Origin: a plasmid
Length of the DNA stretch: 64,000 nt
Sequence record: NZ_CP014126.2
Reading direction: 5' to 3' (one strand)
Below the pieces are notes generated by a model. The model worked only from the letters and a program-made list of their open reading frames with translations. It searched no databases and had not been told where the DNA came from. The first letter of the stretch is position 1. Each line of letters starts with the position of its first letter. The position numbers and the translations under genes are program-made. Shown here one piece after another: positions 37,990-60,176 of this stretch.

Positions 37990-38740
37990 CGTTACAGACG
38001 CGCACGTTGCGCTGACCGGCTGGTGACGAACCTTGTCAGGGATATAAAGAATTCAGCAGGATAGCTTTATTTATCAAGCCGCTCTCCGGGTGTAAGATTT
38101 CATCACACCCCACGCAAGATTTCATCTTGCAGTTTTTTTATTTTAAAACATAGAGTTATCCTGTTTTTAATGGAGTTTTTTGTTTATATAAAATTAAAAG
38201 TGTGCTAATTAACACACTTTACAGTGCCGTATTGTGTGTCATGATGGTGCCTTATTGTGTGTTGTTATGGTGCTGGATTGTGTGTTGTGACAGTGCCGCC
38301 TTGTGTGGTAATTAGGCACTGCAAAAGGCACTGTAGGGTGTGCTAATTATCGCTAGTCATTAAAATCAATAACCTAGATATATGCTACGCCATGCTAGTG
38401 CCTGATTAACACACATCAAAACAGCCCACAGTGCCGGATTGGCACACCTAAAATAGAGTAGTAATGCCTGCTCACCACATCTTAGTTACTCAGGTTTTAT
38501 CATTTCTTATGGCCTGGAAAGCTATATAGTGCTGAATTAACACACATTTTTGATGCGTCGCCTGCTATATCAGATCTCATGAAAAAATAATTACCTAGTG
38601 CTGGATTGACACACACTCATTCAAAGAGAAATAATTAAAACAGCTGAGCTACACCTTCTACATATTTCTCCAGAAAAGATGCTCTGGTTTCTTATTCGCT
38701 TAAATTTTTCAGAATGCGATCTTATTTTCGCCGCTACGGA
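37990..38740. promoter_or_regulatory. oriT: oriT region: F-type nic sequence plus arrays of putative relaxosome-protein binding sites
   Basis: The minus strand reads TTGCGTGGGGTGTGATGA at 38101-38118 (compare F nic GCGTGGGGTGT|GGTG). A-tract bend at 38133-38150. Palindrome GTGTGCTAATTAACACAC at 38200-38217. Four tandem 23-bp repeats (gtgccNNattgtgtgt...) at 38223-38312. Further AGTGCYNGATTRACACAC copies at ~38388, 38425, 38529 and 38597. traM lies immediately downstream. Confidence 0.7.
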
Positions 38741-38751
38741 GTGACAGCAAA

Positions 38752-39138
38752 ATGGCCCGAAGGAATATTTATTTTAAAGAGAAAACTGAAAGGGAAGTCC
38801 TTGAGCTTGTACAGATTGAGCTTCAGAACGGAGCCACACACGGCGAGATAAACTTTTCCTCTGTTGTGAATGAGCTCGTCGGTATTGGTTTGATGGTAAA
38901 AAAACATCAGGGTGAAGGTAGCAAGTTTGATGCTGAGGGATTCAATCGAGATCTGATACGCAAAGTTTCGGGAACCCGTGAAGGAACCAGCATTATGATT
39001 GCAATGCTTACAGAAATGTACCTGCATGTCAGAGGAGAGAACAATGCACACGCTCTGGAGGAGCTGATTGACCGTAACCTGACGGGGATAAGTGCGGCAG
39101 AGGATAGGGCTGAAAATAAGCATTTTATCCAGGAATAA
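38752..39138 (+). CDS. traM: TraM relaxosome accessory protein
   Basis: 127-aa protein. N-terminal RHH-like segment (RRNIYFKEKTEREVLELVQIE) and C-terminal tetramerisation-like helix. It is positioned right after oriT, as in F. Confidence 0.7.
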   Translation: MARRNIYFKEKTEREVLELVQIELQNGATHGEINFSSVVNELVGIGLMVKKHQGEGSKFDAEGFNRDLIRKVSGTREGTSIMIAMLTEMYLHVRGENNAHALEELIDRNLTGISAAEDRAENKHFIQE

Positions 39139-39142
39139 CGAA

Positions 39143-39172
39143 GCCGGGCGTTTGCCCGGCAATTTTTAATTT
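39143..39172. terminator. bidirectional terminator gccgggcg-tt-tgcccggc plus T-run
   Basis: Hairpin between convergent traM and the histidine kinase gene. Confidence 0.65.
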
Positions 39173-40431
39173 ACGCGCGAAACAGGGATTCTCAGCGTGA
39201 ACGTAGTACCCTTTCCGATTTCAGAGTGTGCCTTTATTGAACCGCTCATGGTTTTTATATAACTGTTCACAATAGTAAGTCCGAGTCCAAGACCTTGCCT
39301 GGTTTCTGATTCAGCACCTTGATTAAAAGGCTTGTAGAGGAACTTTAACTTACGCATGTCAAAGCCACATCCATTATCACTTACTCTTATCATTAAAATT
39401 CTATCGGTCAGTCTGAGTCTTACATCTATTAATCCATTACTGGTGTTTTTATTGGAATTATCTATCAGGTTGTGAATAATCGATATGAGCTTTTGCTTAT
39501 CAGTTCGAATCAGTGTTTCAGGCAGGTTTACATGAAACTCTAATGTGTTTGTTGTTTCATTGAAGAGTGACATGCTTGATTCGATTATTTCATTGAGCCT
39601 GAAAGTTGTCACATTTAAACCAACGTTTCCGATTTCAATCTTCGAGAACTCAAGGATCTCTTTTGTTTGCTGGAAGAGTTTATTTGAGTGTAATGAGATT
39701 TTTGCAAGATATTTCTGAGTTGCGAGCATGCCCTCTTGGGGATCTATCATATCGCATGCGAGTTGAATTTTTTGGATTGAACCAGACATTTCGTGATAAA
39801 TTGCCGAGATAAAGATATTCTTACCTTTTATGGCTGCTTTAAGTTTGGAGATGTGCATCCATAATACGATCATTAGAAGAAAAAGAAGGAATATACTTGC
39901 GAGCGCAGTTGTTTCTGCACTCATTGAGTTATCGCTTATTATCTTTTTAACTCTCTCAAAGTTTTTAATCTGAATACGATAGATGATTTGTTGGAGGTCA
40001 ATCAAAGCCGGTTGCATTTCATCCATTTTACTTAGCAGCATTGCTTTTGTTGATGAAGGGTTTTCCGGATTATAGAGTGCGCCTAAATCAGCGCTTTGTT
40101 TTTCAATATTACTTAGAGCTGATATGAAATCTGGCTCGTAATAAAACGTGCCGCTATAATTATATTTATTGCGAAGGATTAGTAGTTTTGAGTCAAAGAC
40201 GGATTTACTGATCAGGAAAGCATTCGGATTTTCAGTTTTATAAACTGCAGTTCTGGTACGTTCGAAAGCAAGAAATAATATTTCTGCAGTAGAATAGTTA
40301 TCAAGAGTAGGAGCTATACTTCTGTACTGATTTTTTACTTCATTGAACTTCATAACAGTTAGATAGACGGAACCTCCAAAAAGCAGAGTCAGTACCAGGC
40401 CAAAAAATACCGCTGTTTTTTTACCTTTCAT
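39166..40431 (-). CDS. sensor histidine kinase with a ~160-aa periplasmic domain
   Basis: TM1 VFFGLVLTLLFGGSVYLTV; TM2 ALASIFLLFLLMIVLWM. H-box ISAIYHEMSGSIQKI; N-box IHNLIDNSNKNT; G1 DNGCGFD; G2 GLGLGLTI. AT-rich. Confidence 0.8.
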   Translation of the reverse strand: MKGKKTAVFFGLVLTLLFGGSVYLTVMKFNEVKNQYRSIAPTLDNYSTAEILFLAFERTRTAVYKTENPNAFLISKSVFDSKLLILRNKYNYSGTFYYEPDFISALSNIEKQSADLGALYNPENPSSTKAMLLSKMDEMQPALIDLQQIIYRIQIKNFERVKKIISDNSMSAETTALASIFLLFLLMIVLWMHISKLKAAIKGKNIFISAIYHEMSGSIQKIQLACDMIDPQEGMLATQKYLAKISLHSNKLFQQTKEILEFSKIEIGNVGLNVTTFRLNEIIESSMSLFNETTNTLEFHVNLPETLIRTDKQKLISIIHNLIDNSNKNTSNGLIDVRLRLTDRILMIRVSDNGCGFDMRKLKFLYKPFNQGAESETRQGLGLGLTIVNSYIKTMSGSIKAHSEIGKGTTFTLRIPVSRVN

Positions 40432-40882
40432 CTACCGCCTCAATTCTGTTTATCTGCCAGACAGTGCGAGCATTTACTTCAAGATTATTCAACTCTGGAT
40501 GCTGGTCCCTGGGATAAATGACAGCAAAAGGACCGAGATCTGAGACGGGTATCTGTTTTCCGTTTTTCTTGTAGGCAAGGATGACTCCATACTTGTCCAG
40601 TTCGGCTACGGGGAGGGTATAGCTGTAGTCATCAAGAGCAAAGATTCGCAACTGAGAGGCCTGAACACCGTACGATTTCAGGAGCGTAGTAAAAGTTACA
40701 CCTTCGAATGTTGCTTCAGGGGTGAAATTAGTAGAGGTTTTAATAGTTGATAAAGCCAGATGTGACAGGTCTTCTGTAGTGATCGTTCTAGTCGTTTTAC
40801 CAAAAACTAACTGAAGCGTGTCTGCCAGCACCACAGGTGCTGACGTCATGGAGAGACACAATATACATGCCCTTATTATCAT
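40421..40882 (-). CDS. secreted small protein, possibly with a sulfite-oxidase/YedY-like fold lacking Mo ligands; putative co-sensor
   Basis: Signal peptide; GVTFTTLLKSYG...ALDDYSYTL...GPFAVIYPRDQHPELNNLEVNARTVWQINRIEAV loosely follows the Moco-oxidoreductase domain consensus. Overlaps the kinase gene start. Confidence 0.35.
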   Translation of the reverse strand: MIIRACILCLSMTSAPVVLADTLQLVFGKTTRTITTEDLSHLALSTIKTSTNFTPEATFEGVTFTTLLKSYGVQASQLRIFALDDYSYTLPVAELDKYGVILAYKKNGKQIPVSDLGPFAVIYPRDQHPELNNLEVNARTVWQINRIEAVDER

Positions 40883-41322
40883 TTTTGTTTCCTTTTTCGC
40901 ATGATCAGTTGGCCAAATTCATCGTCACCTTGCGGCACCCAACCTCGGGCTGCATAAAATCCTGCCGCAGAAGACCCTTTATCGGTGGTCAGTTCAATCT
41001 GGTCATCACTTCCGCTAAAGAACCAGTCTGTGATCCTTTCGAGTATCTCACTCCCAATACCTCGCCCGTGATACTCCGGTCTGACAAACAGGCCGCCAAT
41101 GAGGGCATGGGGAATGTGTATACCCAGTCCGTAACCCACAAACTCGTCATTAATACTGCAGATCCATCCACCCCCCTGGCTGATGTCTTCAATTACCTGT
41201 TCTCTCTGCAGATATTGTATCTGGTGAGCATGAACCATGTTTTCCTTTACAGAAAAACGGATGTCGTAAACTTCCTTGATGTGTCTTGGTTCAAGTTTCA
41301 GGAATTCCATTTTTAGTACCAT
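40879..41322 (-). CDS. GNAT-family N-acetyltransferase
   Basis: Acetyl-CoA motif A: FVRPEYHGRGIGSEILERI. 147 aa. Confidence 0.75.
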   Translation of the reverse strand: MVLKMEFLKLEPRHIKEVYDIRFSVKENMVHAHQIQYLQREQVIEDISQGGGWICSINDEFVGYGLGIHIPHALIGGLFVRPEYHGRGIGSEILERITDWFFSGSDDQIELTTDKGSSAAGFYAARGWVPQGDDEFGQLIMRKRKQK

Positions 41323-41325
41323 TAT

Positions 41326-42096
41326 TTAATAGAAAATGTTTGCCAGAAGAATTGAGGATAAAATAAACACCCGCGTCGGTTTCTCGACAAGTTCAACACC
41401 ATACTTGACGATGGTTTCACCGATTTCCTGTTCATGCTGATTTAACTGTCCTGTTAACAAGATAATCGGAACTTTCTCATCTGTACTGCGAATTTTCTTA
41501 ATGACTTCCTCTGAGTTTTGATCATAGTCAAGTAGCCAGTCAATAACATACCCATCATAAGATTCGCTATCAATAGCTTCACTGAGAGAGGCCGCAGTCT
41601 GAAAGGCCTGCCCGTCTATGCCGTACCTATTGGATACAGACTGCATTAACTCCAGGATTTCATTGTCATTATCAAGTATCGCTATTTTTGGGGCAGGCAA
41701 AAGGTCCATTTTCTTTACTTTCTTCATATCTTTGTGAATTTTTGAAGAAGTCGGGTTTATAATATAGAAGTTCTTACTTTTATATGCATAGTTAATACCA
41801 GGTTCTTTAACCTCTACATCTTCATTACTTACTTCAACATTACATCGGATATGAATGTCGTTTACTATAAATAAGCCATTATAGTTACGCCTATCATCTA
41901 ATGATTCATTGAAGAAAGAAAAAATACGTTTTACTTCCTGATAAGTTATGCCACGTTTTTCGTCTAGTTTTTGTTTGGCGCTCTTATATTGAATGTCTAG
42001 TATTTCAGCAATAGTAGATGCCTGCTTTCTTTTTCCTATTCCCTTCCGTTCCAACAGGTTCAGGACTTTTTCAAGATTTAGCTTTGGTCTTTCCAA
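41326..42096 (-). CDS. atypical response regulator: N-terminal HTH, C-terminal receiver domain
   Basis: C-terminal REC pattern (KIAILDNDNE...DGYVIDWLLD...VPIILLTGQ...VEKP). N-terminus has an HTH-like stretch (KRKQASTIAEILDIQYKSAKQKL). It occupies the traJ position, on the opposite strand. Confidence 0.6.
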   Translation of the reverse strand: MERPKLNLEKVLNLLERKGIGKRKQASTIAEILDIQYKSAKQKLDEKRGITYQEVKRIFSFFNESLDDRRNYNGLFIVNDIHIRCNVEVSNEDVEVKEPGINYAYKSKNFYIINPTSSKIHKDMKKVKKMDLLPAPKIAILDNDNEILELMQSVSNRYGIDGQAFQTAASLSEAIDSESYDGYVIDWLLDYDQNSEEVIKKIRSTDEKVPIILLTGQLNQHEQEIGETIVKYGVELVEKPTRVFILSSILLANIFY

Positions 42097-42798
42097 TTGA
42101 ACACCCGGCTGTATTGAATAGATTTAATAGTTTGCGTTTTTGCATTTCAATTTGGGTTAACTCAAAGATGATACACGACTGACGAACTTTTGAAGATAAT
42201 TTTATGCTGTCAACTTATTGATATATATAGAGTTATTGTAAGTCCTCGCAATGGAATCAGAAAAATCCTCAAAAAATACTCAGCAAGGGGTTCACTTAGG
42301 GAGCGGTTATCTAGTAAAGTAGTGTAAGTGCCTTACATACATGTGCTCGCAGCGTAACGCCAAAGCTGTCGTGCTGTGTAAGGTGAGGCTCAATGTCAGT
42401 TTAAAAAAATATGAACTCATGCTACGCCATAGCCTCACTGAATTTATTCTTGAATGGGGTCTAACTGCTACTGATGAGCTCATATATAAAATAATACATA
42501 CATAAACCTATGCCGAAGTGTTCTCCACAAACATCTTTGCATAGCTGCGTTCAATCAGCCCCTCTCCTGTTCAGCATGTCTGGTGAGGGGCAGTTGATCG
42601 TTTTACAGATACTTTCCAGATAGGTTTCCAACACCAGGGTTTTTTCTTCTTCTTTTCATTAACTAAGAGTTTTCTTTTCTCAGGAGGTGTGAGGTATCTA
42701 AAAGCCAAATTTCATTATCAATACTAGTCCCCGTTAATTAATGCATACGCTTTATGCGCGTATGAACTCAGTGTTTTTTTTAAACTGGATATTCACAA

Positions 42799-43221
42799 AT
42801 GAAAATTACCCACTCCGTTACCGGTTTACCGGTGAACGTGGCGGTAGCATTGCCTGATGAGGTTAAGACTCACACAGGCAATGTATTCAGCCGCACCGCC
42901 AACCGTTTCCATTCTGCTTCTTCTCTGTTCTTAACCTCCCTGAAATCCTCCCCCTCATTTCGCCACAGCCTAATGCTGTGCGCGTTGATGCTGGTTGTTG
43001 TGGCTTTTCCACATATTGCTAATGCCACTGACCTGCTGAAGACGCAGCAGCAGGATGCCAGTGACACGTTTGGCCTGCAAAGCTCCGTTATGCGCTGGAT
43101 TTATTTCGCAGAGATCATCATTTCAGTTGTGGGGTTCATTAAGACCCGAAATCCTCTGGTTTTTGTCGGCCTTATTGTGGTCCTGCTCGTAACCCGTGCT
43201 TTCTACGGTATGGTCGGGTGA
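42799..43221 (+). CDS. traA: TraA propilin (F-type pilin)
   Basis: The C-terminal 65 aa (TDLLKTQQQDASDTFGLQSSVMRWIYFAEIIISVVGFIKTRNPLVFVGLIVVLLVTRAFYGMVG) match the F pilin architecture. Long leader peptide. Confidence 0.75.
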   Translation: MKITHSVTGLPVNVAVALPDEVKTHTGNVFSRTANRFHSASSLFLTSLKSSPSFRHSLMLCALMLVVVAFPHIANATDLLKTQQQDASDTFGLQSSVMRWIYFAEIIISVVGFIKTRNPLVFVGLIVVLLVTRAFYGMVG

Positions 43222-43224
43222 TAT

Positions 43225-43530
43225 ATGGAAGACAGGGAATCGCGAAGGTATTACTTCCCGGAAACCCTAAACAACCAAAAGCGTTGGTTTGGTCTGCCAC
43301 CTGAAGAGGCGGTTATTCTCATTGGTTGTGGCGGACTGGGGTTCTGGATTGACATGTTTGTCATCATGCTCATTACCGGCGGTGCGCTCTGGCTTCTTAT
43401 ACGTCACCTTAAGAAGGGGCAGGGGTCCTGGTGGCTTCTGAACCTTCTTTATTGGTATCTGCCCACCACGCTTTTCCGGACGCAGCTGCGGCGTGTTCCG
43501 GATTCCGGCAACCGTCACTGGATGCAGTAG
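43225..43530 (+). CDS. traL: TraL
   Basis: RRYYFPETLNNQKRWFGLPPEE...SWWLLNLLYWYLP...DSGNRHW matches F TraL (YRFPDTLNQPWR...SANREW). Confidence 0.8.
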   Translation: MEDRESRRYYFPETLNNQKRWFGLPPEEAVILIGCGGLGFWIDMFVIMLITGGALWLLIRHLKKGQGSWWLLNLLYWYLPTTLFRTQLRRVPDSGNRHWMQ

Positions 43531-43581
43531 CCCTTCTGCCGCCTTTCGGGGCGGCACATTTCCCTGAAAATGGGAGGACTC

Positions 43582-44190
43582 ATGAAACTTCAGATAAAAG
43601 AAACGCGCCACCGCGTGGTGGTATACACGCTCACGGGACTCGTCGCCCTCGTCTTTCTTCTTGCTGTTGCCTGTGGCATTACCGGTGCAATGGCTTGGTA
43701 TTTTGCTCACACGCAGAAAACCATCACCACTCCGATGACATTCGACAGACCATTTGTCTCCGATGTAACAGCCGGAGACGCAGCGCTGAATAGCATGCTT
43801 GTACGATCACTCGTTAACCTGCGTCTCAACGTCACGCCAGAAACGGTCGATCGCCAGCACGAGCTTCTTCTGAGTTTTGTAACTCCTGAAGCACGCTCTG
43901 AAATGAAAAAGGTGTTGGCTACCGAATCCGCATATGTGAAAAAAAATGGTATTGCCAGTGTGTATAGCATTGAGCAGGAGGCCACTGACCCTAAGACCGG
44001 CGATATCACGGTCGGAGGGACACTTCGAGCCAGTACTACAAACGGCAGCGTCAGCGTTGATCTGCCTGTTGCCAGGCAGGCCTGGCGGCTTCGTCTCCAC
44101 TACGTAAATGGCCTAATCCGACTTGAAGCCTTTCCCGAAGTGTCCTGGTCCGCCTCTTTCAACGCAGATAGCTCTGGAAAATCATTATGA
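43582..44190 (+). CDS. traE: TraE
   Basis: N-terminal transmembrane segment; TPMTFDRPF..LRLNVTPETVD matches F TraE (TPMAFNAPF...LRLNVSSETVD). ATG at 43582 after GGAGGA. Confidence 0.8.
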   Translation: MKLQIKETRHRVVVYTLTGLVALVFLLAVACGITGAMAWYFAHTQKTITTPMTFDRPFVSDVTAGDAALNSMLVRSLVNLRLNVTPETVDRQHELLLSFVTPEARSEMKKVLATESAYVKKNGIASVYSIEQEATDPKTGDITVGGTLRASTTNGSVSVDLPVARQAWRLRLHYVNGLIRLEAFPEVSWSASFNADSSGKSL

Positions 44191-44918
44191 AAGCACAACT
44201 GATTGCCGCGTTCATCGCCGGTGTCATCCTGACTGGTCCGGTCAGCGCTACCGTACCCGGACCGGCTGGTACTGTATTTGAAAATAATGCGCATCTTAAA
44301 GCGATGATGAGTAATACCAGTCCAAATAAAATTGTTATCGATGGTGAATTGATCACTGGTATTACCGGCCCTGATAACGCCTATAAAAAAGCAAATACTG
44401 CCGATGGCGCACTGCTGATAACGCCTCTTACGGGGCAGGATTTCACAATCTTCCTTGAAACTGCCAGCGGCGTAGGCGTCTCAATTGATGTATCACCGAA
44501 ACCGGGAAACGGGCGCACTCTGCACCTTATTCCGGCAGATGCACCGGTGAAACCTAACCCTGACGCTAAATCATGGGAAGAAAGTCAGCCGTTCCAGAAA
44601 ATACTGGTGAGCATTGCTCGCACCGTAGCGAATGGCGAGGTACCTGAAAACTATACCGAGATTAAGGCTTCGCGCGGTCCTGCTTATACCCCCCCCGCTG
44701 GCGTGCAGCTGACACCTGAACGTCAGTTGGCAGGTTCGCATCTGCGGGTGATGCGTTATCGCATAAAAAATACAGGCTATGTGACCCGGATGCTTAGCGA
44801 GAAACAGTTCTGGCAGAAGGACGTGCGTGCAGTAATGCTCTCAACACAAACGCTTTATGCGAACGGTGAAGGCTTTGTATGGGTGATCTTCTCAACTGAT
44901 CCGGAGGGCGGAGCATGA
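44187..44918 (+). CDS. traK: TraK (secretin-like)
   Basis: Signal peptide; position and size (243 aa) fit TraK. Confidence 0.75.
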   Translation: MKAQLIAAFIAGVILTGPVSATVPGPAGTVFENNAHLKAMMSNTSPNKIVIDGELITGITGPDNAYKKANTADGALLITPLTGQDFTIFLETASGVGVSIDVSPKPGNGRTLHLIPADAPVKPNPDAKSWEESQPFQKILVSIARTVANGEVPENYTEIKASRGPAYTPPAGVQLTPERQLAGSHLRVMRYRIKNTGYVTRMLSEKQFWQKDVRAVMLSTQTLYANGEGFVWVIFSTDPEGGA

Positions 44919-46303
44919 GCAATATCAATACCGCAACGCGTCGCCGGCAGTGGGTAATCACCGGTGTGGCCGTCGCGGTTATGCTGGCTGTGGGCGCGGG
45001 TATATGGGGGTATTCAGAGCATCTTGCGGCACTGAAAAATCCTCCTCCGGCTCCAACCGCAGATCTGACAGGAGCAGGACTCGTCAGCAGTAGTTTTACC
45101 GCTGCAGTGTCAGAGTCCGTACTGACGCAGCAGCAGAACAAGACTGCCTCCCTTGAAAAGGACCTATCTACGCTGTCCAATAATGTCAGTTCACAGAACG
45201 AAGCGCTGACGCGCAAACTCGAACAGATAAGCTCGGCACTGGATAAGCTGCAGAGTCAGACGGACAAACCGCCATCGCAGAACGGGCCTGTCACTTCACA
45301 AACCGGACCAGGGACAACCGCTACTGGTCCAGCCTCGCTGGGACAGTCTGGTCCGGCACAATGGCGCGTAACTAACCCCGGTAACGGTCCGGGAGCAGGG
45401 CAGGGGAGTCAATTCTATCCTGCACAGAGTCATAGTTTTTATCCCGGTAACGGTACTGTGCGCCCGGGTGGTCTGAGTCGAGATACTTTTACCTACGCTG
45501 CGCTCGCAGAGAAAAAGACAAAGCTTCCCTGGATTCCATCAGGATCGTTTTCAGAAGCGGTAATGATTGAAGGCGCAGATGCCAATGCCAGTGTTACTGG
45601 CCAGCAAAATACCTCTCCAGTAGTCATTACTTTGTTGGGTGACGTTTCTATGCCCAACGGTAAAACATACAACATGGATCAGTGTCGCGTAACTGGAGAA
45701 ATTTTCGGTGATATTTCCAGCGAACGTGGCGAGGTCCGAACCAAAAACATCAGCTGCATACTGAAAAATGGCAAGCACATCGATATGGCTTTCGACGGTC
45801 ATGTGTCTTATCAGGGCAAGCAGGGTATTCGCGGCAAGCCTGTCATGCGTAATGGTGCAGTACTCGCTAACGCCGGATTTGCAGGGTTGCTATCGGGACT
45901 GGGTGAAGGTGTTCAGGCTGGCTCCACTACTACCGTCGGCATCGGTGCCACAGCTTCGCCAGCTGCAGGTGACATCTTAAGACAGGGACTAGGCGGCGGT
46001 GCCAGCAAAGCAGCAGATACGCTGAGTCAGTACTACATCAAACGCGCCGAGCAGTATCACCCTGTTATTGATATTGGTGCTGGCAACTCCGTGACAGTCG
46101 TATTCCAGCAGGGATTCAGGCTCGAAACCATTGAGGATGCTGAGGCGGAGAAAGCGCTAAAAGACGCGCCACAGGCCACTGTTCAGCAGGCTGCAGCAGT
46201 GGTGCCTGCCAGCGTCAATACAGGTAGTGCACCGGTTCTAAATCCTGATGAAGTACTGCGTCAGGCCAGTCAGTTACGTCTCGGTGATACGATCCCTCAA
46301 TGA
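44915..46303 (+). CDS. traB: TraB (VirB10-like)
   Basis: N-terminal transmembrane segment, Pro/Gln-rich linker and C-terminal beta-domain. 462 aa. Confidence 0.8.
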   Translation: MSNINTATRRRQWVITGVAVAVMLAVGAGIWGYSEHLAALKNPPPAPTADLTGAGLVSSSFTAAVSESVLTQQQNKTASLEKDLSTLSNNVSSQNEALTRKLEQISSALDKLQSQTDKPPSQNGPVTSQTGPGTTATGPASLGQSGPAQWRVTNPGNGPGAGQGSQFYPAQSHSFYPGNGTVRPGGLSRDTFTYAALAEKKTKLPWIPSGSFSEAVMIEGADANASVTGQQNTSPVVITLLGDVSMPNGKTYNMDQCRVTGEIFGDISSERGEVRTKNISCILKNGKHIDMAFDGHVSYQGKQGIRGKPVMRNGAVLANAGFAGLLSGLGEGVQAGSTTTVGIGATASPAAGDILRQGLGGGASKAADTLSQYYIKRAEQYHPVIDIGAGNSVTVVFQQGFRLETIEDAEAEKALKDAPQATVQQAAAVVPASVNTGSAPVLNPDEVLRQASQLRLGDTIPQ

Positions 46304-46314
46304 AGGAGTTTTCA

Positions 46315-46848
46315 ATGAAACAGTGGTATGTGCTGCAAACGCTTTTTGCACAGGAGAAAAGGGCTGAGGCACATCTTATTAATCAGGGAGTTGAATGTTA
46401 CCTACCATTTTTCACCTGTCAGTTACTGGCTGACGGGAAAGTGAAGCCGGTTAAAGCACAACCCCTTTTTCCTGGATATTTGTTTGCAAGGTTTGATCCG
46501 GAAGACATTCACACAACCACTATAAAATCTACACGAGGCGTATCCACGATTGTTCGGTTCGGAAACCGCATTGCTGTTATGTCTGATGAAGAAATGAATC
46601 GCTTAAGGCATGGTGCGGACTCGGCAGCGAAGGCTGACATGCAGTCTCCTGCGCATGGTGACAAAGTGTTGATTGCAGGCGGCGTTTTCGGAAACCTCGA
46701 AGCTATCTGGCATGAGCCTAATGGTGCAAAACGGGCAATATTATTGCTGAATTTTATGGGCCGCCTTATTGAGTTGGATTTGAAAAAGGCCCGATCTGAG
46801 GGAATGCAGATTAAAAGACTGACAGGCAGTAACCAGGCTGCGGCCTGA
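46315..46848 (+). CDS. RfaH/NusG-family paralogue (NGN domain plus KOW-like C-terminus)
   Basis: KQWYVLQTLFAQEKRAEAHLINQGVECYLPF...PLFPGYLFARFDPEDIHTTTIKSTRGVSTIVRFG...GDKVLIAGGVFGNLEAIWHEPNGAKRAILLLNFMG is colinear with E. coli RfaH. ATG at 46315 follows AAGGAG. Confidence 0.75.
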   Translation: MKQWYVLQTLFAQEKRAEAHLINQGVECYLPFFTCQLLADGKVKPVKAQPLFPGYLFARFDPEDIHTTTIKSTRGVSTIVRFGNRIAVMSDEEMNRLRHGADSAAKADMQSPAHGDKVLIAGGVFGNLEAIWHEPNGAKRAILLLNFMGRLIELDLKKARSEGMQIKRLTGSNQAAA

Positions 46849-46875
46849 GTGGTTTGACTCTTGAATATTTGAAAT

Positions 46876-47319
46876 TTGCAGAATATGGAGCATCGTATGA
46901 GACACTCATTCGTTAAAAGAATCATTAAAAATAATAAGTTACTAGTTAGCCTGACTATTACTGTCCTGACTTTCAATATGGTCACGTTGTTTTGGCTCAG
47001 GCACAGCGGATATCTGACATGGGAATCATTAAACTGGTCAGTTTTGAGGGTGATTGCTCTGGTCTCAGCATTAATGGCCGCTTTAAATCTTTACCTGCTC
47101 TTGAAACGCGACGAACTGAGCTCCGTCTACCTTTTACCTGCTTCGGTTCCCTGGCTAATGGCGATGCTTTGGTACGTTTGCAAGAGTGTTTGGTATTGGT
47201 CGCTTCCTTCCTCTCCGGTTCAATATTTAATTTTTGGTGCGCTGGGAAGTTTCTTCTTCACTCTGGCTGTTGTAGCTGCAATGGCTAACCAACATGAAAG
47301 TATGGATAAACGGATTTAG
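46876..47319 (+). CDS. inner-membrane protein (TraP-like position)
   Basis: 147 aa, four hydrophobic segments; located between traB and traV where traP sits in F. Confidence 0.4.
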   Translation: MQNMEHRMRHSFVKRIIKNNKLLVSLTITVLTFNMVTLFWLRHSGYLTWESLNWSVLRVIALVSALMAALNLYLLLKRDELSSVYLLPASVPWLMAMLWYVCKSVWYWSLPSSPVQYLIFGALGSFFFTLAVVAAMANQHESMDKRI

Positions 47320-47363
47320 TGCAACGCAACAAGCGATTATGAACGGTCAGATACCGCGTTACT

Positions 47364-47393
47364 CCGGGTTTTACTCAGCTGAGTAAAACCCGG
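47364..47393. repeat. 30-bp perfect palindrome CCGGGTTTTACTCAG|CTGAGTAAAACCCGG
   Basis: Read directly from the sequence; lies in the gap upstream of traV. Confidence 0.9.
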
Positions 47394-47511
47394 AAGTTAT
47401 AGAAAAACGTCATATTGCAACCTTCACCTGCTCTTTTACTGCTCGTTCAGTTTAATCCCAACGCACCACTCCCTTATCAACTGCGGCCCTTCCGTATCTG
47501 AGGAAACTACT

Positions 47512-48060
47512 ATGCAAAAATTATTTGCGTGCGCACTGTTGTGCGCTGCGCTGACCGGCTGCGCCGGTATGAACTCTGATTTTGACTGCAACAAAACTGC
47601 GACCGATCAGTGTCTGTCGATGTCCGATGCCAGCAAACTGGCATCGAAGCATAAAAGCCTGGACGATCTGAGCGCAGAGAAGGAGGCCGGCCCAAAGCCT
47701 GCCGCTGAGGCGCTGGCGACGCCCGGCAATGCGAAATCCGCCATCAACCCTTACCGCTCTGTTAGCGTGGCCTCTCTGTCACCGCGCCCCATATCCGGAC
47801 AGATTGCTAATTCCGGGGACATCCGGGCATCAACACTGCCGGTCCACTCCGCATCACTGTCCGGAACCTCAGTCGCTGCAGCCGATGCCAACGGGCCCGG
47901 ACATGCAGACGCACGTCGTATTCCTGACGCCACTCAGAGATTGTGGATTGCGCCTTGGGTGGATGAGCAGGACAGCTTCCATCAACCCGCTGTGGTTGAA
48001 TTTGTTAAGCAGAAATCCCGCTGGGATGAAGACTTTCGCGTGATTAGCGAGGGAGAGTAA
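47512..48060 (+). CDS. traV: TraV outer-membrane lipoprotein
   Basis: Lipobox LTGCAG; ...RLWIAPWVDEQDSFHQPAVVEFV matches F TraV (ALWIAPYIDNQDVYHQPSSVFFV). Confidence 0.85.
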   Translation: MQKLFACALLCAALTGCAGMNSDFDCNKTATDQCLSMSDASKLASKHKSLDDLSAEKEAGPKPAAEALATPGNAKSAINPYRSVSVASLSPRPISGQIANSGDIRASTLPVHSASLSGTSVAAADANGPGHADARRIPDATQRLWIAPWVDEQDSFHQPAVVEFVKQKSRWDEDFRVISEGE

Positions 48061-48153
48061 TGAATAAACATTTTCCCTTCAAATCACGACATGAAACGTT
48101 CTCGCCCGACGCAGCCGGTGCTGCTCGGGGAGCGATAAAATCTGGAGAATGGC

Positions 48154-50799
48154 ATGCTCAATAACGTTATCGATCATCTTGCCGGCATTCTCAGCAGCGG
48201 GCGAGGTGAGGGCGGGGCAAAAGAAGCTGCCGCCATGCTACGTCAGAACTTCAATTATCCGTCTCTGAGTGGTCTGTTCCCCTGGCGCGCTTATGACGAT
48301 ACAACCGAACTCTACGTCAATAGCCGTTCCATTGGATTCGTTATGGAAGTGGCACCGCTGGCAGGTGCAAATCAGCAGGTGGTGCAGGCACTGGATGATC
48401 TGCTGCGCAAAACATTACCCCGCAAAACTCCCGTCACAGTGTTGATGGTCGCCAGTAAGTGTGTTGGAGATCTGCTGGATGAGGGGCTTAGTCGAGATAT
48501 GTGGAAAGGCAATATGGCTCCACAACTCAATGCGATTACTAAGGCTTTTTGGGAGCGCTCAGCACTCAAGGGGTTGGCGAATAATCGCGATTATCCGCTG
48601 TACCTTCGTAACTACCGCGTTTTTCTGGTGTACGCACAGGCCGGACGTGGTGGTATTCGGGCTATGGAAGAGGCAGTTCAGATGGGTAAAACGCTGCGCG
48701 TTTCGTTGCAGGCAGCCCATATGGATACCCGCCGCGTCGGGCCAGAAGAGTTTCTTTCTGTGGTTCGTGAGCAGCTCAACTACCGGCCGGGGCAGGTCAC
48801 TACGAGTAATAAACAGTGGAACAGTGATCAAGAGCTGCACCGCCAGTGTGTTGACCCCAGCACAGAGCTTGAAGTGCATCCCGGTTTTCTTCGGCTAACC
48901 ACGGCTCTTCAGCCGGAAGATCGAACCCTCGATAAAAGCGAAACTGATGGTGTCGCTCGTACACGCATTGTCAGTCTGCAGCTGACCCGAACACCCGCGA
49001 AGTTTGCGCTGTGGCAGGCTTCAGACAACCTGCAGAATATGCGTTTCCCGGATCTTGGTATTCCCTGCCCGTTTATTCTGAGCTGGACGGTATGCGTTGA
49101 AGATCAGGTAAAAAGTCAGAACTCTGCATTCAGCAAAGAGCAGGACCTGGGTAAGAAAGCAGGAACCTCTTATGCGAAGCTGTTTCCTGGTACCGAACGT
49201 GCTTATCAGGAGTGGCGCGGACTGCGTCAGGAACTGGCCAACAATGAAATCGCCATGTGCGATATGTCACTGAATCTCACACTCTTTACACCGGATGATG
49301 CGAGCGAGCAGAAAAAATGTGAGCTGGCAGCCATCAATGTGTTCCGTAAAAACGAGCTTGAAATAGCAGCACCGCGCTTTCAGCAGTTACGCAACTGGCT
49401 TACCACTTTGCCGTTTATGATGCAGGAGGGTTTATGGGACGATATGCGTCAAATGGGAGCGACACTCCGCTGTAAAACGTTTAATGCAGTCAATCTTATG
49501 CCCGTAGTTGCCGAACGGCAGATGTCGCCGCGCGGTATTCCGCTGGCCACTTATCGCAACCAGTTGGCCTTTTTCGACATGTTCAGCAAGCACAACGGAG
49601 CCAGTAACTTTAACTGTGCCGTGACGGGCACGTCAGGTGCGGGCAAGAGTTTCCTTATCCAGGGAATCCTGCGAGAGGTACTGAATACCGGGGGCTTTGG
49701 CTGGGTAATAGACATGGGGGGTAGCTACAGGAACTTCTGCCGTCAGGCGGGTGGGGCATATCTTGATGGGGAAACGTTGCGCTTTAATCCGTTTGCCAAT
49801 GTCACAGACATCAGCGAGTCATCCGAGGGCATAACTGGTCTGATGGCCGTTCTGGCAAGTCCGCAGGGAAATCTGGATGAGATCAGTGAGGCTATTCTGC
49901 AGAAAGGAGTGGTCGCGGCCTATGAAGCGAAGCAGAACAAGGCGCGTATTGACGACGTAGTCCATTATCTTGAATCGTCAGATGTGACTGAAAAATATGC
50001 CAGCCAGCCAACCATAATGAGTCGAATCAACGAACTGGTACTGCTGCTGGATCAATGGTGTACCTGGGGAGCCAACGGCGAATATTTTAACTCAGATGAA
50101 CCTACTCTTGACGGTGAAACACGGTTTACTGTGCTGGAGCTGCAGGGACTGGAGAAACGACCGAATCTTTTGTCCGCGGTGCTGTATTCGCTCATTTTGG
50201 CGATCCAGGAAAAGATGTACCACTCACCTCGTAGTCTGAAAAAAGTGGCCATTATCGATGAGGCCTGGCGTCTGTTCAGTGGACAGAACCCACATGCAGC
50301 ACGCTTTATCGAAAAAGGCTATCGCACGGTTCGCCGCCATCGAGGCGCATTTATCACCATCACCCAGGGCATGAAAGACTTTACCGGATTACCGGGAGAG
50401 CCTGCTCCTTCCGCCGCCGCCGCCGCGTGGGACAACAGCGGAACAAAAATCACGCTACTGCAGGAGGCGAAAGCGCTGAAAACCTACCTCAATGCTAACC
50501 CCGATCAGTTCAGTGAGATGGAAACGGAAATTATTCGTGGATTCCAGAAGGCAATTCTTACGGGATACAGCTCCGCAATGATTTCAATGGGAGAGCAGAG
50601 TTCATTTTACCGCGTGTTTGTTGACCCGCTTACGCGAGCCCTCTTCAGCACCACGGGAGAGGACTATGAATACATGACGGAGGCACAGAATGCAGGAGCG
50701 ACCAGCGAGGAAGCTGCGTGGCTTCTGGCCTGTGAACCACACATGTATCAGGCCGAAATGCAGGAACTGCAGTTATGGGCTGGCCTGACTGTAACCTGA
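48154..50799 (+). CDS. traC: TraC, VirB4-family ATPase
   Basis: 881 aa. Walker A GTSGAGKS; Walker B region VAIIDEAW. Confidence 0.9.
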   Translation: MLNNVIDHLAGILSSGRGEGGAKEAAAMLRQNFNYPSLSGLFPWRAYDDTTELYVNSRSIGFVMEVAPLAGANQQVVQALDDLLRKTLPRKTPVTVLMVASKCVGDLLDEGLSRDMWKGNMAPQLNAITKAFWERSALKGLANNRDYPLYLRNYRVFLVYAQAGRGGIRAMEEAVQMGKTLRVSLQAAHMDTRRVGPEEFLSVVREQLNYRPGQVTTSNKQWNSDQELHRQCVDPSTELEVHPGFLRLTTALQPEDRTLDKSETDGVARTRIVSLQLTRTPAKFALWQASDNLQNMRFPDLGIPCPFILSWTVCVEDQVKSQNSAFSKEQDLGKKAGTSYAKLFPGTERAYQEWRGLRQELANNEIAMCDMSLNLTLFTPDDASEQKKCELAAINVFRKNELEIAAPRFQQLRNWLTTLPFMMQEGLWDDMRQMGATLRCKTFNAVNLMPVVAERQMSPRGIPLATYRNQLAFFDMFSKHNGASNFNCAVTGTSGAGKSFLIQGILREVLNTGGFGWVIDMGGSYRNFCRQAGGAYLDGETLRFNPFANVTDISESSEGITGLMAVLASPQGNLDEISEAILQKGVVAAYEAKQNKARIDDVVHYLESSDVTEKYASQPTIMSRINELVLLLDQWCTWGANGEYFNSDEPTLDGETRFTVLELQGLEKRPNLLSAVLYSLILAIQEKMYHSPRSLKKVAIIDEAWRLFSGQNPHAARFIEKGYRTVRRHRGAFITITQGMKDFTGLPGEPAPSAAAAAWDNSGTKITLLQEAKALKTYLNANPDQFSEMETEIIRGFQKAILTGYSSAMISMGEQSSFYRVFVDPLTRALFSTTGEDYEYMTEAQNAGATSEEAAWLLACEPHMYQAEMQELQLWAGLTVT

Positions 50800-50814
50800 T
50801 CCGGAGAAATAATT

Positions 50815-51261
50815 ATGCATGAAGAAAAAATGTCATCTGCCCGTGCAGATGAGGAAGGCGGTAACGGCCACGTCGCGACGGGTAGCGTCAGAGCAAAAAC
50901 GTGGTCTCGGCTGCTTTACAGCCGGAGGTGCAGAACTGCTGTGGCAGGCGCACTGTTAGTAGTGATGAGCGGTGGTGTCAGCGCACTAGTTTCGCAAGCG
51001 CTACAGCCAGCATACGTTGTGTTTGACATGAAAGGCACTATCGACACTTTTCGCCAGCAAACCGCGCAGCGGCCGATGGAAAAAGATGTGCTTGAGACCC
51101 TGACGAAGCGCTTTGGTGCAGCGCTGGATTCAAGCCTGACGGCCTGGCAGGAAAAACATAATGGCATCGTTCTGGTAAAGGGTGCGGTTGTTGGTGGTGC
51201 TCGCGACATCACGCCTGACATTCAGGCGGACATTGCGCGTCAGATGCAGGGGACGCAATGA
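50815..51261 (+). CDS. trbI: TrbI
   Basis: Single transmembrane segment, ~130-150 aa, in the F gene-order position after traC. Confidence 0.55.
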   Translation: MHEEKMSSARADEEGGNGHVATGSVRAKTWSRLLYSRRCRTAVAGALLVVMSGGVSALVSQALQPAYVVFDMKGTIDTFRQQTAQRPMEKDVLETLTKRFGAALDSSLTAWQEKHNGIVLVKGAVVGGARDITPDIQADIARQMQGTQ

Positions 51262-51899
51262 ATAGACGCCCGATAGCCAGGCTTCTTGCCACAGTGGTTT
51301 TTTTACTCGCTACAGCGGTTTCACTGACCGCAGGGGCGAAAGATCTTGGAACCATCGGGCATCTGTTTCCGATCGCCGAGCCGGACCTGCTGACCTTTAT
51401 CGGCCAGCGACTGCAGGGCATGAAAGACAGCGGCGAGATGGACAGGCTGCAGCGCGAGGCCGAAGCGCGTGTAAAGGAGCACGCAGTACGCCCGGCACCA
51501 GTGGCTGGGCTGACGTCGGCGAAGAAAAATAAAACTTTCATGTACGACCCGACATTTACAGTGCGTGAAACTATCCGGGATATGCGTGGAAATATCATTG
51601 CCCGGGCCGGCGATAAGGTTAATCCGCTGGATAAAGTGCCTTATAGCGAAACACTTTACTTCGTTGACGGAGACAACCCTGCGCAAATGGACTGGGTTAA
51701 ACCACAGCTTAAGGAAAAGCAAAACTTCAAGGTCATTCTGGTTAAAGGCAATGTGCACGACAGCAGCATCGCTCTGGACGAGCCTGTCTACTTTGATCAG
51801 TACGGCACGCTAACAACAAAATTTGGCTTTGAGCACACGCCTGTACGTATCACACGTGACGGGCGCATGCTCAAAGTAGAGGAGGTGGCGCTGAAATGA
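51258..51899 (+). CDS. traW: TraW
   Basis: Signal peptide; AKDLGTIGHLFPIAEPDLLTFI matches F TraW (AEDLGTWGDLWPVKEPDMLTVI). Confidence 0.8.
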   Translation: MNRRPIARLLATVVFLLATAVSLTAGAKDLGTIGHLFPIAEPDLLTFIGQRLQGMKDSGEMDRLQREAEARVKEHAVRPAPVAGLTSAKKNKTFMYDPTFTVRETIRDMRGNIIARAGDKVNPLDKVPYSETLYFVDGDNPAQMDWVKPQLKEKQNFKVILVKGNVHDSSIALDEPVYFDQYGTLTTKFGFEHTPVRITRDGRMLKVEEVALK

Positions 51900-52186
51900 G
51901 TCACAAAATGCGAGGACGTAAAGCTCCGGAAACTGTAAAAATTCACGCGGCTACTGTGCGTATGGATGATGCTGATAAAGCAAGACTGAGGCAGATGACC
52001 AGTGAGCACCCACTGTACACAGAATCGGTAATAATCCGAGCTGCATTACAGGCTTTTCTTGCGTATGGCGTCCCGATGCGAACTGAAATTGTACTGGCCT
52101 CACTGAATGAAGGTGATGTAAGCGAACTCATGCGCCGCCACGGCATGCTGCCCACATCCGAGAGTGAGGGAACGCATGCAGTATAA
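51896..52186 (+). CDS. ribbon-helix-helix small DNA-binding protein inside the tra operon
   Basis: VKIHAATVRMDDADKARLRQMTSEH...SVIIRAALQAFL follows the beta-alpha-alpha RHH pattern. Confidence 0.5.
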   Translation: MSHKMRGRKAPETVKIHAATVRMDDADKARLRQMTSEHPLYTESVIIRAALQAFLAYGVPMRTEIVLASLNEGDVSELMRRHGMLPTSESEGTHAV

Positions 52187-52856
52187 CCTTGTCCAGAAGG
52201 TGATAGATGACTGGCAGAAAACTGAGTCATCATCGGCATCCGTGGCTGCACCGGTTCAGCTGCACCCTGAGCCGGTAATGCAACCGGTATGGACGGCTCC
52301 TATCCCGCCTGCCTGCCGAGCTGAAATTTCACTGGCACCGGAGAGCATCAGTGCATTTACGTCAGGCTTACCGGCTGTGGGTAGTTTCATTGTTCTGATA
52401 GCGATGGCCATTGTCATCGTCCGTGTAGGAAGGAGAATGACTCCCGAGAGGCCGGACACCATGCGCGTTGTATATGGATCGTCACCTCCGGCCCCCCTTG
52501 GCAGTCGTAAGATGGCTGACCTGGCAGCCGCTGAGGCAAACAGCCATTACTGGCAATGCATGCTGGCGGCATTTGGCGGCGCGCTGGAGGCCGAAGGCTT
52601 TGCGCTTCGTGCTGAGCCTCGGGCAAAGATCCTGCTGCCTTATGCTGTCCGGGCCCGCGTGGGTATCGCCATCGTAAAAGCGCGTTACCGCTACCTGAAC
52701 CCGCGCCAGAGCGACGAAGCTGCAGAGGCGATGCTGCGTGATGCCGAAGAGGATGACTACACCGGCAGCTGGACCGATTGCTGTCAGCGGGGAGCCGAGG
52801 CGGCCGGCTGGTATGTAGTAAGCCGGGGTGATGTCGGTCCACTAAATATGCAATGA
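52164..52856 (+). CDS. hypothetical protein with one transmembrane segment
   Basis: ORF with hydrophobic segment GSFIVLIAMAIVIVRV; overlaps the upstream stop. Confidence 0.4.
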   Translation: MRERMQYNLVQKVIDDWQKTESSSASVAAPVQLHPEPVMQPVWTAPIPPACRAEISLAPESISAFTSGLPAVGSFIVLIAMAIVIVRVGRRMTPERPDTMRVVYGSSPPAPLGSRKMADLAAAEANSHYWQCMLAAFGGALEAEGFALRAEPRAKILLPYAVRARVGIAIVKARYRYLNPRQSDEAAEAMLRDAEEDDYTGSWTDCCQRGAEAAGWYVVSRGDVGPLNMQ

Positions 52857-52878
52857 CCTTCCTACAGGTATAAAAATT

Positions 52879-53271
52879 ATGAGAAATAAAAATCGCGAAC
52901 CGGGCCTTATTCGGGTGATGACGTCACTGGATAACGTTGGTCTGGGTGAGCGACAGAAAACTATTTCGGACCTGCTACACAGCGCGCGGTTCGCCATACA
53001 GGAAGGGGATTACTTTACCGCACAGCAGCACATTACTGAGACTCTCGGCCAGTTGCGTAAAGCGCGACACAGCCTGCAGGTCTCTGGCGCAGATGAGCTG
53101 GAAATTAGTCTGCTTAATAATGCGATTGCCAGGCTGCTTGCTGTGCAGAAAGAAGGTGGTGCGGACTGGCGTGCTTATTTTTTTGTGTATTTACGTGAGA
53201 GCCGATATCCGCTGTTATTCCTGTTTTTTGTTGCAATATTAGCAATCGTATTCGTAAGGATTACTAGCTGA
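52879..53271 (+). CDS. hypothetical C-terminally membrane-anchored protein
   Basis: 130 aa; hydrophobic tail LLFLFFVAILAIVFV. Confidence 0.4.
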   Translation: MRNKNREPGLIRVMTSLDNVGLGERQKTISDLLHSARFAIQEGDYFTAQQHITETLGQLRKARHSLQVSGADELEISLLNNAIARLLAVQKEGGADWRAYFFVYLRESRYPLLFLFFVAILAIVFVRITS

Positions 53272-53371
53272 CAGGTCATCTGCCAGAATTTTGTAACAGG
53301 AGGAGGGCCCGCAGTGGATATCAGCTGGTCTAAAATCTGCGCATGAGTTATCACTTAAAGGAAAACCGGCA

Positions 53372-53752
53372 ATGAAAAAAACGACGCTCAGCCTTCTGTT
53401 GTTTGCTGCTGGCCATGCCTCAGCTGCGCCGTCGCTCATGCAGGCCTGGCCGTCATGCGACATAAAAGCTCAGCATGACGCGAAGGGCGTAACCGGCGGA
53501 AGCATCAGAGACCCGCTTCAGGCGCATATTTCAGTGCGCGTTAACGTACTGCAGGCCGATATCAGCAACGCCCGCAAGGCGCGTCATTTAACAGAATCTC
53601 AATCCGAACAGCTATGGCGTCATGCAGACCGCATCAGAAAAGATACTGATGGTTATGTGAAGCAGCAGGGATTTCTGAGCGCGGCAGAGCGCGCAAGCTA
53701 CGACCGTGAACTTGACGACATCACCGGCAAACTGTGCCGCGCAGTGAAGTAA
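53372..53752 (+). CDS. hypothetical secreted protein
   Basis: Signal peptide MKKTTLSLLLFAAGHASA; 126 aa. Confidence 0.45.
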   Translation: MKKTTLSLLLFAAGHASAAPSLMQAWPSCDIKAQHDAKGVTGGSIRDPLQAHISVRVNVLQADISNARKARHLTESQSEQLWRHADRIRKDTDGYVKQQGFLSAAERASYDRELDDITGKLCRAVK

Positions 53753-53806
53753 CATCTACCCGGGTGGCTCTGGCCACCTGAATGCCTTTTCTGCCCACGA
53801 TGCGCA

Positions 53807-53845
53807 GGCTGTTCGTTCCTCGCGCCGCTGCGGTACGCCTCAGCC
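53807..53845. repeat. dispersed 39-bp repeat, copy 2
   Basis: See 17351-17389. It follows a hairpin ggtggctctggccacc at 53765-53780. Confidence 0.5.
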
Positions 53846-53918
53846 TGCACCCCGCAGGCAGGCCCGATTAACGTCTGACTCCGGCAGTTCCGCTGCCGTC
53901 ATTACGGAACCTCACCCT

Positions 53919-54260
53919 ATGACATACCCCGCTGAAATATCGGCTCAGCCGGTCGTGCGCGATCGCTGGGGCGGCTGGACGCATCCTGACTTCTTTGTGC
54001 CCGCTGATGGTAATGAATATCCGCAGCCCGGCGAGTTTGAGGCCTGGCTTACCGCGCATAGTCTGGCGGCCGCCTTCACCTGGATGGAAAACGATGCGCC
54101 GGACTGGATCCGTGATCGCTTCCAGAAAACAGGTGACTGTAGCAGCTGGCAGCCCTCCGGGCCTGGCGGAGAGGGCTGGTTTATAGGCAGCATCCACGAC
54201 ACTGATGACGGCCCAGTGTGCGTCTGGCTTCGTCAAAAGCAGGAGGTGCGGAACGCATGA
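53919..54260 (+). CDS. hypothetical protein
   Basis: 113-aa ORF immediately upstream of traU. Confidence 0.4.
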   Translation: MTYPAEISAQPVVRDRWGGWTHPDFFVPADGNEYPQPGEFEAWLTAHSLAAAFTWMENDAPDWIRDRFQKTGDCSSWQPSGPGGEGWFIGSIHDTDDGPVCVWLRQKQEVRNA

Positions 54261-55249: not shown

Positions 55250-55258
55250 GGACTCACC

Positions 55259-58529: not shown

Positions 58530-58539
58530 GGACCTGATT

Positions 58540-59832: not shown

Positions 59833-59863
59833 TGAAGGCAGCTTTACCGCTCACGGAACACCT

Positions 59864-60142: not shown

Positions 60143-60176
60143 CAGAACGTATACATTTACAGACGGGGAAAACACC

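Follow-up and report, generated by a model that had tools for sequence, protein, structure and literature searches.

On sequence evidence, the F-type tra operon of the plasmid analysed here probably carries its own RfaH-type antiterminator, a factor that would be dedicated to this operon, would load at an ops-like element inside the first tra gene, traA, and would act in positive feedback on its own synthesis. We examined a 64,000-nucleotide stretch of sequence record NZ_CP014126.2 (hereafter the window), which is 99.7% identical over 5 kb to plasmid pT88c_C of Pantoea agglomerans T88c (NZ_CP134722.1), an MPF_F plasmid. A first-pass annotation had proposed a resident antiterminator securing full-length tra transcription; this emerges as the best-supported reading, with the functional part of the proposal deduced from homology, synteny and conservation of the site.

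The tra region and the identity of the rfaH product

The window features traM and a divergent regulatory cluster, followed by traA-traL-traE-traK-traB-rfaH-hypothetical-traV-traC and onward. The elements that bear on the analysis are the following:

42799-43221, + strand: traA (propilin), first gene of the tra operon, matched by Pfam TraA, with the ops-like element in codons 14-18 of the leader peptide
42840-42854, + (non-template) strand: ops-like element GGCGGTAGCATTGCC, putative loading/pause site for the resident RfaH
43225-46303, + strand: traL, traE, traK and traB, between the ops-like site and rfaH, from open reading frames (ORFs) and annotation
46303-46308, + strand: Shine-Dalgarno sequence AAGGAG, 6 nt before the rfaH ATG, read from the sequence
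46315-46848, + strand: rfaH paralogue, 177 aa, with NGN domain, linker helix, KOW-type C-terminal domain and a basic extension of about 20 aa
46897-47319, + strand: small polytopic membrane protein of 140 aa, with a weakly similar ORF after rfaH in most relatives
47363-47394, no strand assigned: perfect 32-bp palindrome (16+16 nt) between the membrane ORF and traV
47512-64000, + strand: distal tra genes traV, traC, trbI, traW, traU, trbC, traN, traF, trbB, traH, traG and onward, presumed beneficiaries of antitermination

The rfaH gene is thus the sixth of an F-type operon and lies 3.5 kb downstream of the ops-like site, separated from traV (47512-48060) by one extra ORF, that of the 140-aa membrane protein, and preceded directly by traB (44915-46303). 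The operon had been credited with more than 30 kb, a length that is not visible in the window, which ends in traG, but that agrees with the near-identical record NZ_CP134722.1, where traA and the genes that follow on its strand, up to the one behind the MobF relaxase, span about 33 kb.

The product of 46315-46848, which begins MKQWYVLQT, is almost certainly an RfaH-family factor. Its NGN domain is recognized by Pfam PF02357 (residues 2-98, E = 1.4e-22), its score against the NCBIfam RfaH equivalog NF006534 is above the cutoff (150.5 versus 124 bits) and that against TIGR01955 (RfaH) falls just below (142.7 versus 144.5 bits), while a phmmer comparison with the PDB aligns its residues 1-158 with residues 1-156 of E. 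coli RfaH (2oug; E = 2.9e-32), in keeping with the colinearity initially noted for this 177-aa ORF. The aligned region includes IHTTTI at residues 65-70, with the H, T and T of the HTTT motif invariant in the clade; in RfaH this motif is implicated in contact with the β gate loop. Assignments to housekeeping NusG (TIGR00922; 41.9 bits, cutoff 135.7), UpxY (71.2 bits, NCBIfam cutoff 100) and LoaP (42.8 bits, NCBIfam cutoff 125) were rejected, each score falling far short of its cutoff. The near-identical protein of pT88c_C is already named RfaH by PGAP.

The Shine-Dalgarno sequence had been placed right after the traB stop codon (46301-46303), and the two do in fact overlap, the first A of AAGGAG being the last base of the stop. 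A second in-frame ATG at 46300-46302, which overlaps the traB stop (ATGA), would yield a product of 182 aa; we rejected it and take 46315 as the likely start because the upstream codon lacks a Shine-Dalgarno sequence and the resulting extension is absent from the relatives. The MKQWYV start is the one used by PGAP and in all relatives. At the other end of the protein, plasmid RfaH proteins end in a basic tail of about 15-20 aa (residues 158-177 in the window, 46786-46845) that is missing from E. coli RfaH, and an (M/L)RF(H/R) motif recurs in this extension among the plasmid relatives.

Conservation of the traB-rfaH-traV arrangement

A protein scan of genome contigs yielded no plasmid relatives of the window protein. 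It returned five chromosomal-looking RfaH homologues of about 43-44% identity, none of them in a tra context as far as contig titles show, together with one distant epsilonproteobacterial homologue (27%), and we therefore used a plasmid collection, in which tblastn over 72,556 plasmids identified 403 records with a homologue. The comparison draws on 17 F-like loci from this collection and two from assemblies, L029 (Rahnella sp. AA) and L030 (a metagenome contig). The sources include Pantoea agglomerans, P. ananatis, P. stewartii, Pantoea sp. At-9b, Erwinia persicina, E. billingiae and Erwiniaceae PD-1, as well as Phytobacter, Cedecea, Ewingella, Rahnella, a Pectobacteriaceae isolate (Brenneria-like) and Providencia.

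At every one of these 19 loci, from eight named genera and two unclassified isolates, rfaH is found just after traB and before traV, and traB-rfaH-(small membrane ORF)-traV is the recurring order, even though identity to the window protein drops to about 40%. The stand-alone gene position, with action in trans on unlinked operons, that is a trait of RfaH is accordingly absent, with rfaH inside the tra operon in 19/19 cases. Pfam, NCBIfam, phmmer and gene order together confirm that, as first described, the tra operon contains an RfaH paralogue in its traB-traV interval. Homologues outside tra operons were also recovered, one in Citrobacter (L025) in the chromosomal arrangement ubiD-rfaH-tatD and one in Rahnella aquatilis (L026) in a different context.

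The ORFs that follow rfaH in most relatives encode 118-140 aa and, in at least nine loci, overlap the rfaH stop by 4 nt. By BLASTP the 140-aa window product is weakly similar to those of L022, L023, L014, L007 and L021; it gave no Pfam match and no similarity to F TraP, TrbD, TrbG or TraR. Possible roles for this membrane protein are that of a functional partner or of a rapidly evolving tra accessory protein.

The palindrome further downstream, reported at first as a perfect 30-bp repeat at 47364-47393, is real and perfect but larger, with 32 bp at 47363-47394. Its predicted RNA hairpin is strong (z-score -4.9) and lacks a U-tract. The sequence was found in three near-identical Pantoea plasmids only, with 14 related loci lacking it, which places it outside the conserved module, and as a lineage-specific element without a U-tract it was discarded as a conserved partner of rfaH. 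It may instead be a processing, stability or pause element that the antiterminator would help polymerase to pass.

Regulatory surroundings of the operon

Where F has traJ and traY, the window features a four-gene cluster (39166-42096, - strand) divergent from traA, which encodes a BetR-HTH response regulator with a receiver domain (41326-42096), a histidine kinase (39166-40431), a GNAT acetyltransferase and a small protein with a molybdopterin-oxidoreductase-like domain. The cluster may be a two-component input to the tra promoter. A response regulator occupies the same position in the close relatives L014, L015 and L019, while a reverse-oriented gene annotated or Pfam-matched as Arc-family is found there in L004, L005, L017, L018, L020, L024 and L029, a reverse-strand hypothetical gene in L003, L006, L007, L016 and L021-L023, and a same-strand LuxR-type regulator in L027. 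G+C content is 0.40-0.46 across traM, the regulators and traA (38000-44000) versus 0.52-0.60 in the distal tra genes, and this low-G+C region is the type of AT-rich DNA that is silenced by H-NS and counter-silenced by RfaH in other systems.

Consensus scans of 41800-49000 gave two promoter-like sites against a shuffled mean of 7.0, and eight terminator-like sites against 7.9; no tra promoter or internal intrinsic terminator emerged from that interval. An Rfam search of 41800-48200 returned no match, JUMPstart included.

A conserved ops-like element in the traA leader-peptide codons

The first-pass annotation had seen no canonical ops near the tra promoter region and had proposed a search for ops-like 12-mers on the non-template strand across 37990-43000. 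Allowing one mismatch, that search reveals GGCGGTAGCATT at 42840-42851 (+), which overturns the initial impression: the element is near-canonical, matches GGCGGTAGNNTG at 11 of 12 positions with an exact 8-nt core, and starts 41 nt after the A of the traA ATG (42799). It preserves the canonical core G2-G8 as well as T11, and carries T rather than G at position 12. By sequence, GGCGGTAGCATT is therefore a putative cognate ops (GGCGGTAGnnTG) on the non-template strand of the target operon.

Presence of the core is not in itself significant, as the counts are at chance level, with the 8-mer GGCGGTAG occurring five times in the window on both strands and 59 matches found against 58.9 expected when two mismatches are allowed; significance rests on conservation. 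The motif recurs at the identical offset and on the sense strand in 16 plasmid traA genes. We aligned the first 120 nt of traA in ungapped register and computed mean pairwise identity in 12-mer windows, leaving aside L030 (P0008 lineage), whose contig starts inside the pilin genes. The 12-mers over the motif are the most conserved block of this region, at 0.80 versus a mean of 0.47, and within the two site classes described below the motif windows reach 0.94-1.0 versus 0.49-0.61.

Several features of this block are more readily understood at the level of DNA than of protein. The traA codons that cover it are GTG, GCG, GTA, GCA and TTG. Their synonymous third positions never change where they fall on ops G4 or A7 but are variable at ops positions 1 and 10, the latter being N in the consensus. 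The encoded peptide changes from AVALP to AEACP between classes while the DNA core remains the same. On the Providencia plasmid (L027) the element, as GGCGGTAGCTTTGCC, is intergenic, between a traY-domain gene and traA, and in Ewingella (L018) a 1-nt deletion just upstream breaks the traA frame and leaves AGCGGTAGCTTTGCC intact. Taken together, the fixed offset, the frozen synonymous sites, the peptide change and these two loci argue for a constraint on the DNA itself, one that matches the definition of ops. Our literature search found no description of an ops-like site inside traA, nor of its conservation at the DNA level.

The Ewingella locus (Ewingella americana pB61b, around 1470-1530) deserves separate mention, as PGAP starts its traA at a TTG inside the motif, its plasmid gene table lists no traC, and no relaxase is typed; the motif persists here in a tra system undergoing decay.

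Other ops-like matches in the window, at 7494 (-), 16192 (+) and 56827 (-, perfect), are each antisense to and inside an ORF, and we set them aside as chance rather than RfaH sites; within the 64 kb there is no other sense-strand ops-like site in an operon leader. The perfect canonical 12-mer among them, GGCGGTAGCCTG at 56827-56838 (- strand), lies inside traN in antisense orientation to tra; L004, L006 and L007, the three class A loci extending over traN, show no equivalent. It is probably due to chance; were it functional, it would load RfaH onto antisense transcription. A class-A-like core, GCGGAAGCAT, is also found on the sense strand at 53496-53505 (+) inside a hypothetical gene of the tra operon, and is probably fortuitous because the RfaH of the window belongs to class T.

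Co-variation between the site and the plasmid-encoded RfaH

The traA sites fall into two classes. Class T, GCGGTAGC(A/T)TTG, comprises ten fetched loci, namely the window and L003, L005, L014, L015, L016, L018, L019, L020 and L027, and is also found in L029; class A, TGCGGAAGCCTG, comprises eight (L004, L006, L007, L017, L021, L022, L023 and L024). When aligned to E. coli RfaH, class T proteins feature H20 (N in L019), N23 (R in L027), Q24, T68 and R73, and class A proteins Q20, S/E/Q23, Q24, A68 and R73, so that in the eight class A plasmids the ops T6A change occurs together with H20Q, N23S/E/Q and T68A in RfaH. Class A forms one clade in a neighbour-joining tree, and the co-variation consequently represents a single evolutionary event rather than a repeated one.

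The residues concerned lie at positions that touch ops DNA in E. coli RfaH. The RfaH:ops9 crystal structure shows T6 turned out into a pocket to which H20, R23, Q24 and R73 are the main contributors, and T68 is listed among the ops-loop contacts; in vivo, few ops substitutions are as defective as T6A (PMC5995543). The T6A switch is thus the change that would be expected if the plasmid protein, and not host RfaH, reads the site. We found no description in the searched literature of a T6/A6 switch paired with H20Q, N23S and T68A.

Some observations count against recognition of an ops element by this protein. Of the full set of ops-DNA contact residues of E. coli RfaH (K10, R16, H20, R23, Q24, T68, T72 and R73; PMC5995543), the window protein keeps R16, H20, Q24, T68, T72 and R73, but two are changed, K10 to L and R23 to N. 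The T at ops position 12 likewise weighs against it, given that G12C in E. coli ops causes loss of the U11 pause, although recruitment is not abolished (PMC5995543).

Proposed mechanism and alternative explanations

The proposed sequence of events is as follows. Polymerase coming from the tra promoter would reach GGCGGTAGCATT 41 nt into traA, where the non-template strand would fold into a small C3:G8 hairpin that exposes G5 and T6. The NGN domain of the resident RfaH would contact this DNA by way of the retained R16, H20, Q24, T68, T72 and R73; the protein would also bind polymerase, through the HTTT motif, and stay bound, excluding NusG and Rho-dependent termination and suppressing pausing, so that transcription would be carried through the roughly 33 kb to the relaxase gene. 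Basal read-through would make the first RfaH, which would then act in trans on later polymerases; the location of rfaH downstream of its own loading site is what suggests the positive feedback loop.

The main rival to this ops model, which we consider unlikely, is ops-independent recruitment in cis, where a non-autoinhibited protein with a β KOW domain would load co-translationally onto the polymerase transcribing its own mRNA and act only from traV onward, the traA motif being irrelevant or serving host RfaH only. The state of the C-terminal domain bears directly on this alternative. Of the autoinhibitory salt-bridge pair, R138 is kept and E48 is replaced by Q in the window protein; the hydrophobic interface residue L142 is conserved, and position 145 varies between L, F and I. 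AlphaFold2 (AF2) with 51 homologues models the NGN domain with pLDDT of about 90 and the C-terminal domain as β at low confidence (pLDDT 46-64), and with 25 close relatives it predicts a β KOW domain at pLDDT of about 70 with an extra strand (164-168) in the C-terminal extension. Neither run yields the autoinhibited α hairpin, and the top Foldseek matches of the model are polymerase-bound, active forms of E. coli RfaH (6c6s_D and 8phk_P).

The loss of E48, the β fold in both predictions and the embedding of rfaH in its presumed target operon are all consistent with loading in cis, which is the exact mode proposed for RfaH homologues in or next to long operons in PMC13015549; if the predicted β KOW domain is correct, ops may not be strictly required for activation. 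The same source, however, describes AF2 as unreliable for the RfaH fold switch, so the models are not decisive, and the conservation of R138 and L142 suggests that some autoinhibition may persist. Moreover, recruitment in cis leaves unexplained why an ops-like block should be the most conserved DNA at the traA 5' end, and why its position 6 co-changes with ops-pocket residues of the plasmid rather than the host protein.

The remaining two explanations are rated as less likely. It is improbable that the traA site is used mainly by host chromosomal RfaH, as in F, with the plasmid copy serving as a redundant back-up or acting on host envelope or exopolysaccharide operons with canonical ops. Canonical host RfaH should recognize a site with the exact core G2-G8 plus T11, F does rely on the host factor (PMC7819879), and a plasmid protein that keeps H20, Q24 and R73 could bind canonical chromosomal ops. 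Yet the class A substitution T6A is strongly defective for canonical RfaH and the plasmid protein has changed in parallel, which argues that the latter is the cognate partner; retention of the same operon slot in 19/19 loci, eight named genera among them, argues for a tra-specific role, and the lack of another sense-strand ops-like site in an operon leader of the 64-kb window also speaks against this reading. Finally, that the block owes its conservation to the propilin leader peptide or to the initiation of traA translation, with coincidental likeness to ops, is very improbable: it does lie in coding sequence at a fixed distance from the start codon, and an ops core does arise by chance a few times per 64 kb, but the two classes encode radically different residues (V to E, L to C) over an unchanged nucleotide core, synonymous sites are frozen where ops is specified and free where it is N, in Providencia the same 14-mer lies outside coding sequence and in Ewingella it is out of frame, and 11 of 12 positions match an independently defined 12-mer.

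Beyond the resident RfaH of this one operon, we put forward only tentatively a broader scenario, in which F-like plasmids of plant- and environment-associated Enterobacterales would carry private, co-evolving RfaH/ops pairs with the loading site in pilin-leader codons. One clade would have switched the flipped-out base from T6 to A together with H20Q, N23S and T68A, giving a pair orthogonal to host RfaH and to other plasmids, and the position of rfaH downstream of its own site would make for a plasmid-autonomous positive-feedback switch for transfer competence.

Comparison with known systems

The closest reference point is E. coli RfaH itself, with which the plasmid protein shares the two-domain architecture, about 40% identity over the full length, the HTTT motif, residues H20, Q24 and R73, and the same core GGCGGTAG on the non-template strand. 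In contrast to the stand-alone chromosomal gene of E. coli, the plasmid gene lies inside its target operon; its product has K10, R23 and E48 replaced, carries the C-terminal extension of about 20 aa and is modelled by AF2 without the autoinhibited α fold, and its site has T rather than G at position 12. The site is, furthermore, located inside the first ORF, in the traA leader peptide, and not in an untranslated leader or, as in F, in the traV-traR spacer.

The F tra operon needs host RfaH (SfrB) (PMC7819879), and the target here is likewise an F-type tra operon. The F plasmid, used as a control (L002), features a perfect GGCGGTAGCGTG in its traV-traR spacer (9323-9334), the only perfect ops in F. 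This is roughly the place in the operon that rfaH occupies on the present plasmids, whose own ops-like site is found where the operon begins; the RfaH control point thus differs between F and this plasmid group.

Plasmid-encoded RfaH-like factors are known from IncX, where PrfaH/ActX (PDB 9ik0) offers the nearest functional parallel. A 2025 study found that conjugation of IncX3 requires PrfaH, which acts through an ops-like site located ahead of its own gene; the study counted 3,212 plasmids with nusG-family genes, 10% of them IncFII (PMC11880322). Both factors are co-transcribed with the conjugation genes that they activate (putatively so here), and both have an ops-like site upstream of their own gene, consistent with a shared autoregulatory logic. 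The two proteins match by phmmer over the NGN domain only (residues 3-108, E = 2e-8), PrfaH ranks 35th in Foldseek at 27% identity, and its key residues differ (T11, T72, Y76); in IncX, prfaH is the first gene, ahead of a P-type virB operon, rather than the sixth of an F-type one. The name ActX, suggested at first pass for a plasmid RfaH paralogue, was thus right, but on this identity and NGN-only match the IncX protein is a distant analogue and not a member of the same family branch.

True members of the family appear in a 2026 preprint on fold-switch prediction, which places WP_013200013.1 (E. billingiae) and WP_101080081.1 (Rahnella sp. AA) in a 'mixed alpha/beta CTD' group and reports assays in E. 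coli on E. coli ops only (PMC13015549). The group as a whole had low activity there, which counts against the ops model, and WP_013200013.1, from E. billingiae pEB170, had intermediate activity on canonical ops (PMC13015549). We find that WP_013200013.1 is the rfaH product of locus L019 and that the RfaH of Rahnella sp. AA (NCBI name; P0020), a candidate for WP_101080081.1, sits at traB-rfaH in L029; both loci feature a class T ops-like site at the same traA offset. The passages of PMC13015549 covered here contain no analysis of the tra-operon context of these proteins or of the cognate traA site.

LoaP, UpxY and TaA are likewise specialized NusG paralogues in or next to the long operon that they antiterminate, but they come from different phyla, the HMM scores for LoaP and UpxY are weak, and the recruitment signals of these two are RNA or leader elements. 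The concept of a resident RfaH in tra operons is itself already published, and the window gene is an ordinary one that was already annotated. Wang et al. noted in 2020 that plasmids encode resident NusG paralogues in their tra operons, with function awaiting test, and called the recruitment of such operon-embedded paralogues unknown (PMC7593976). For the F-type branch, the present analysis supplies a concrete candidate loading site in answer to that question, together with a natural specificity swap in which ops T6/A6 is paired with H20/Q20, N23/S23 and T68/A68. If correct, the model would explain how a 33-kb operon is expressed independently of host RfaH, and would matter for host range and for attempts to prevent conjugation with RfaH as the target.
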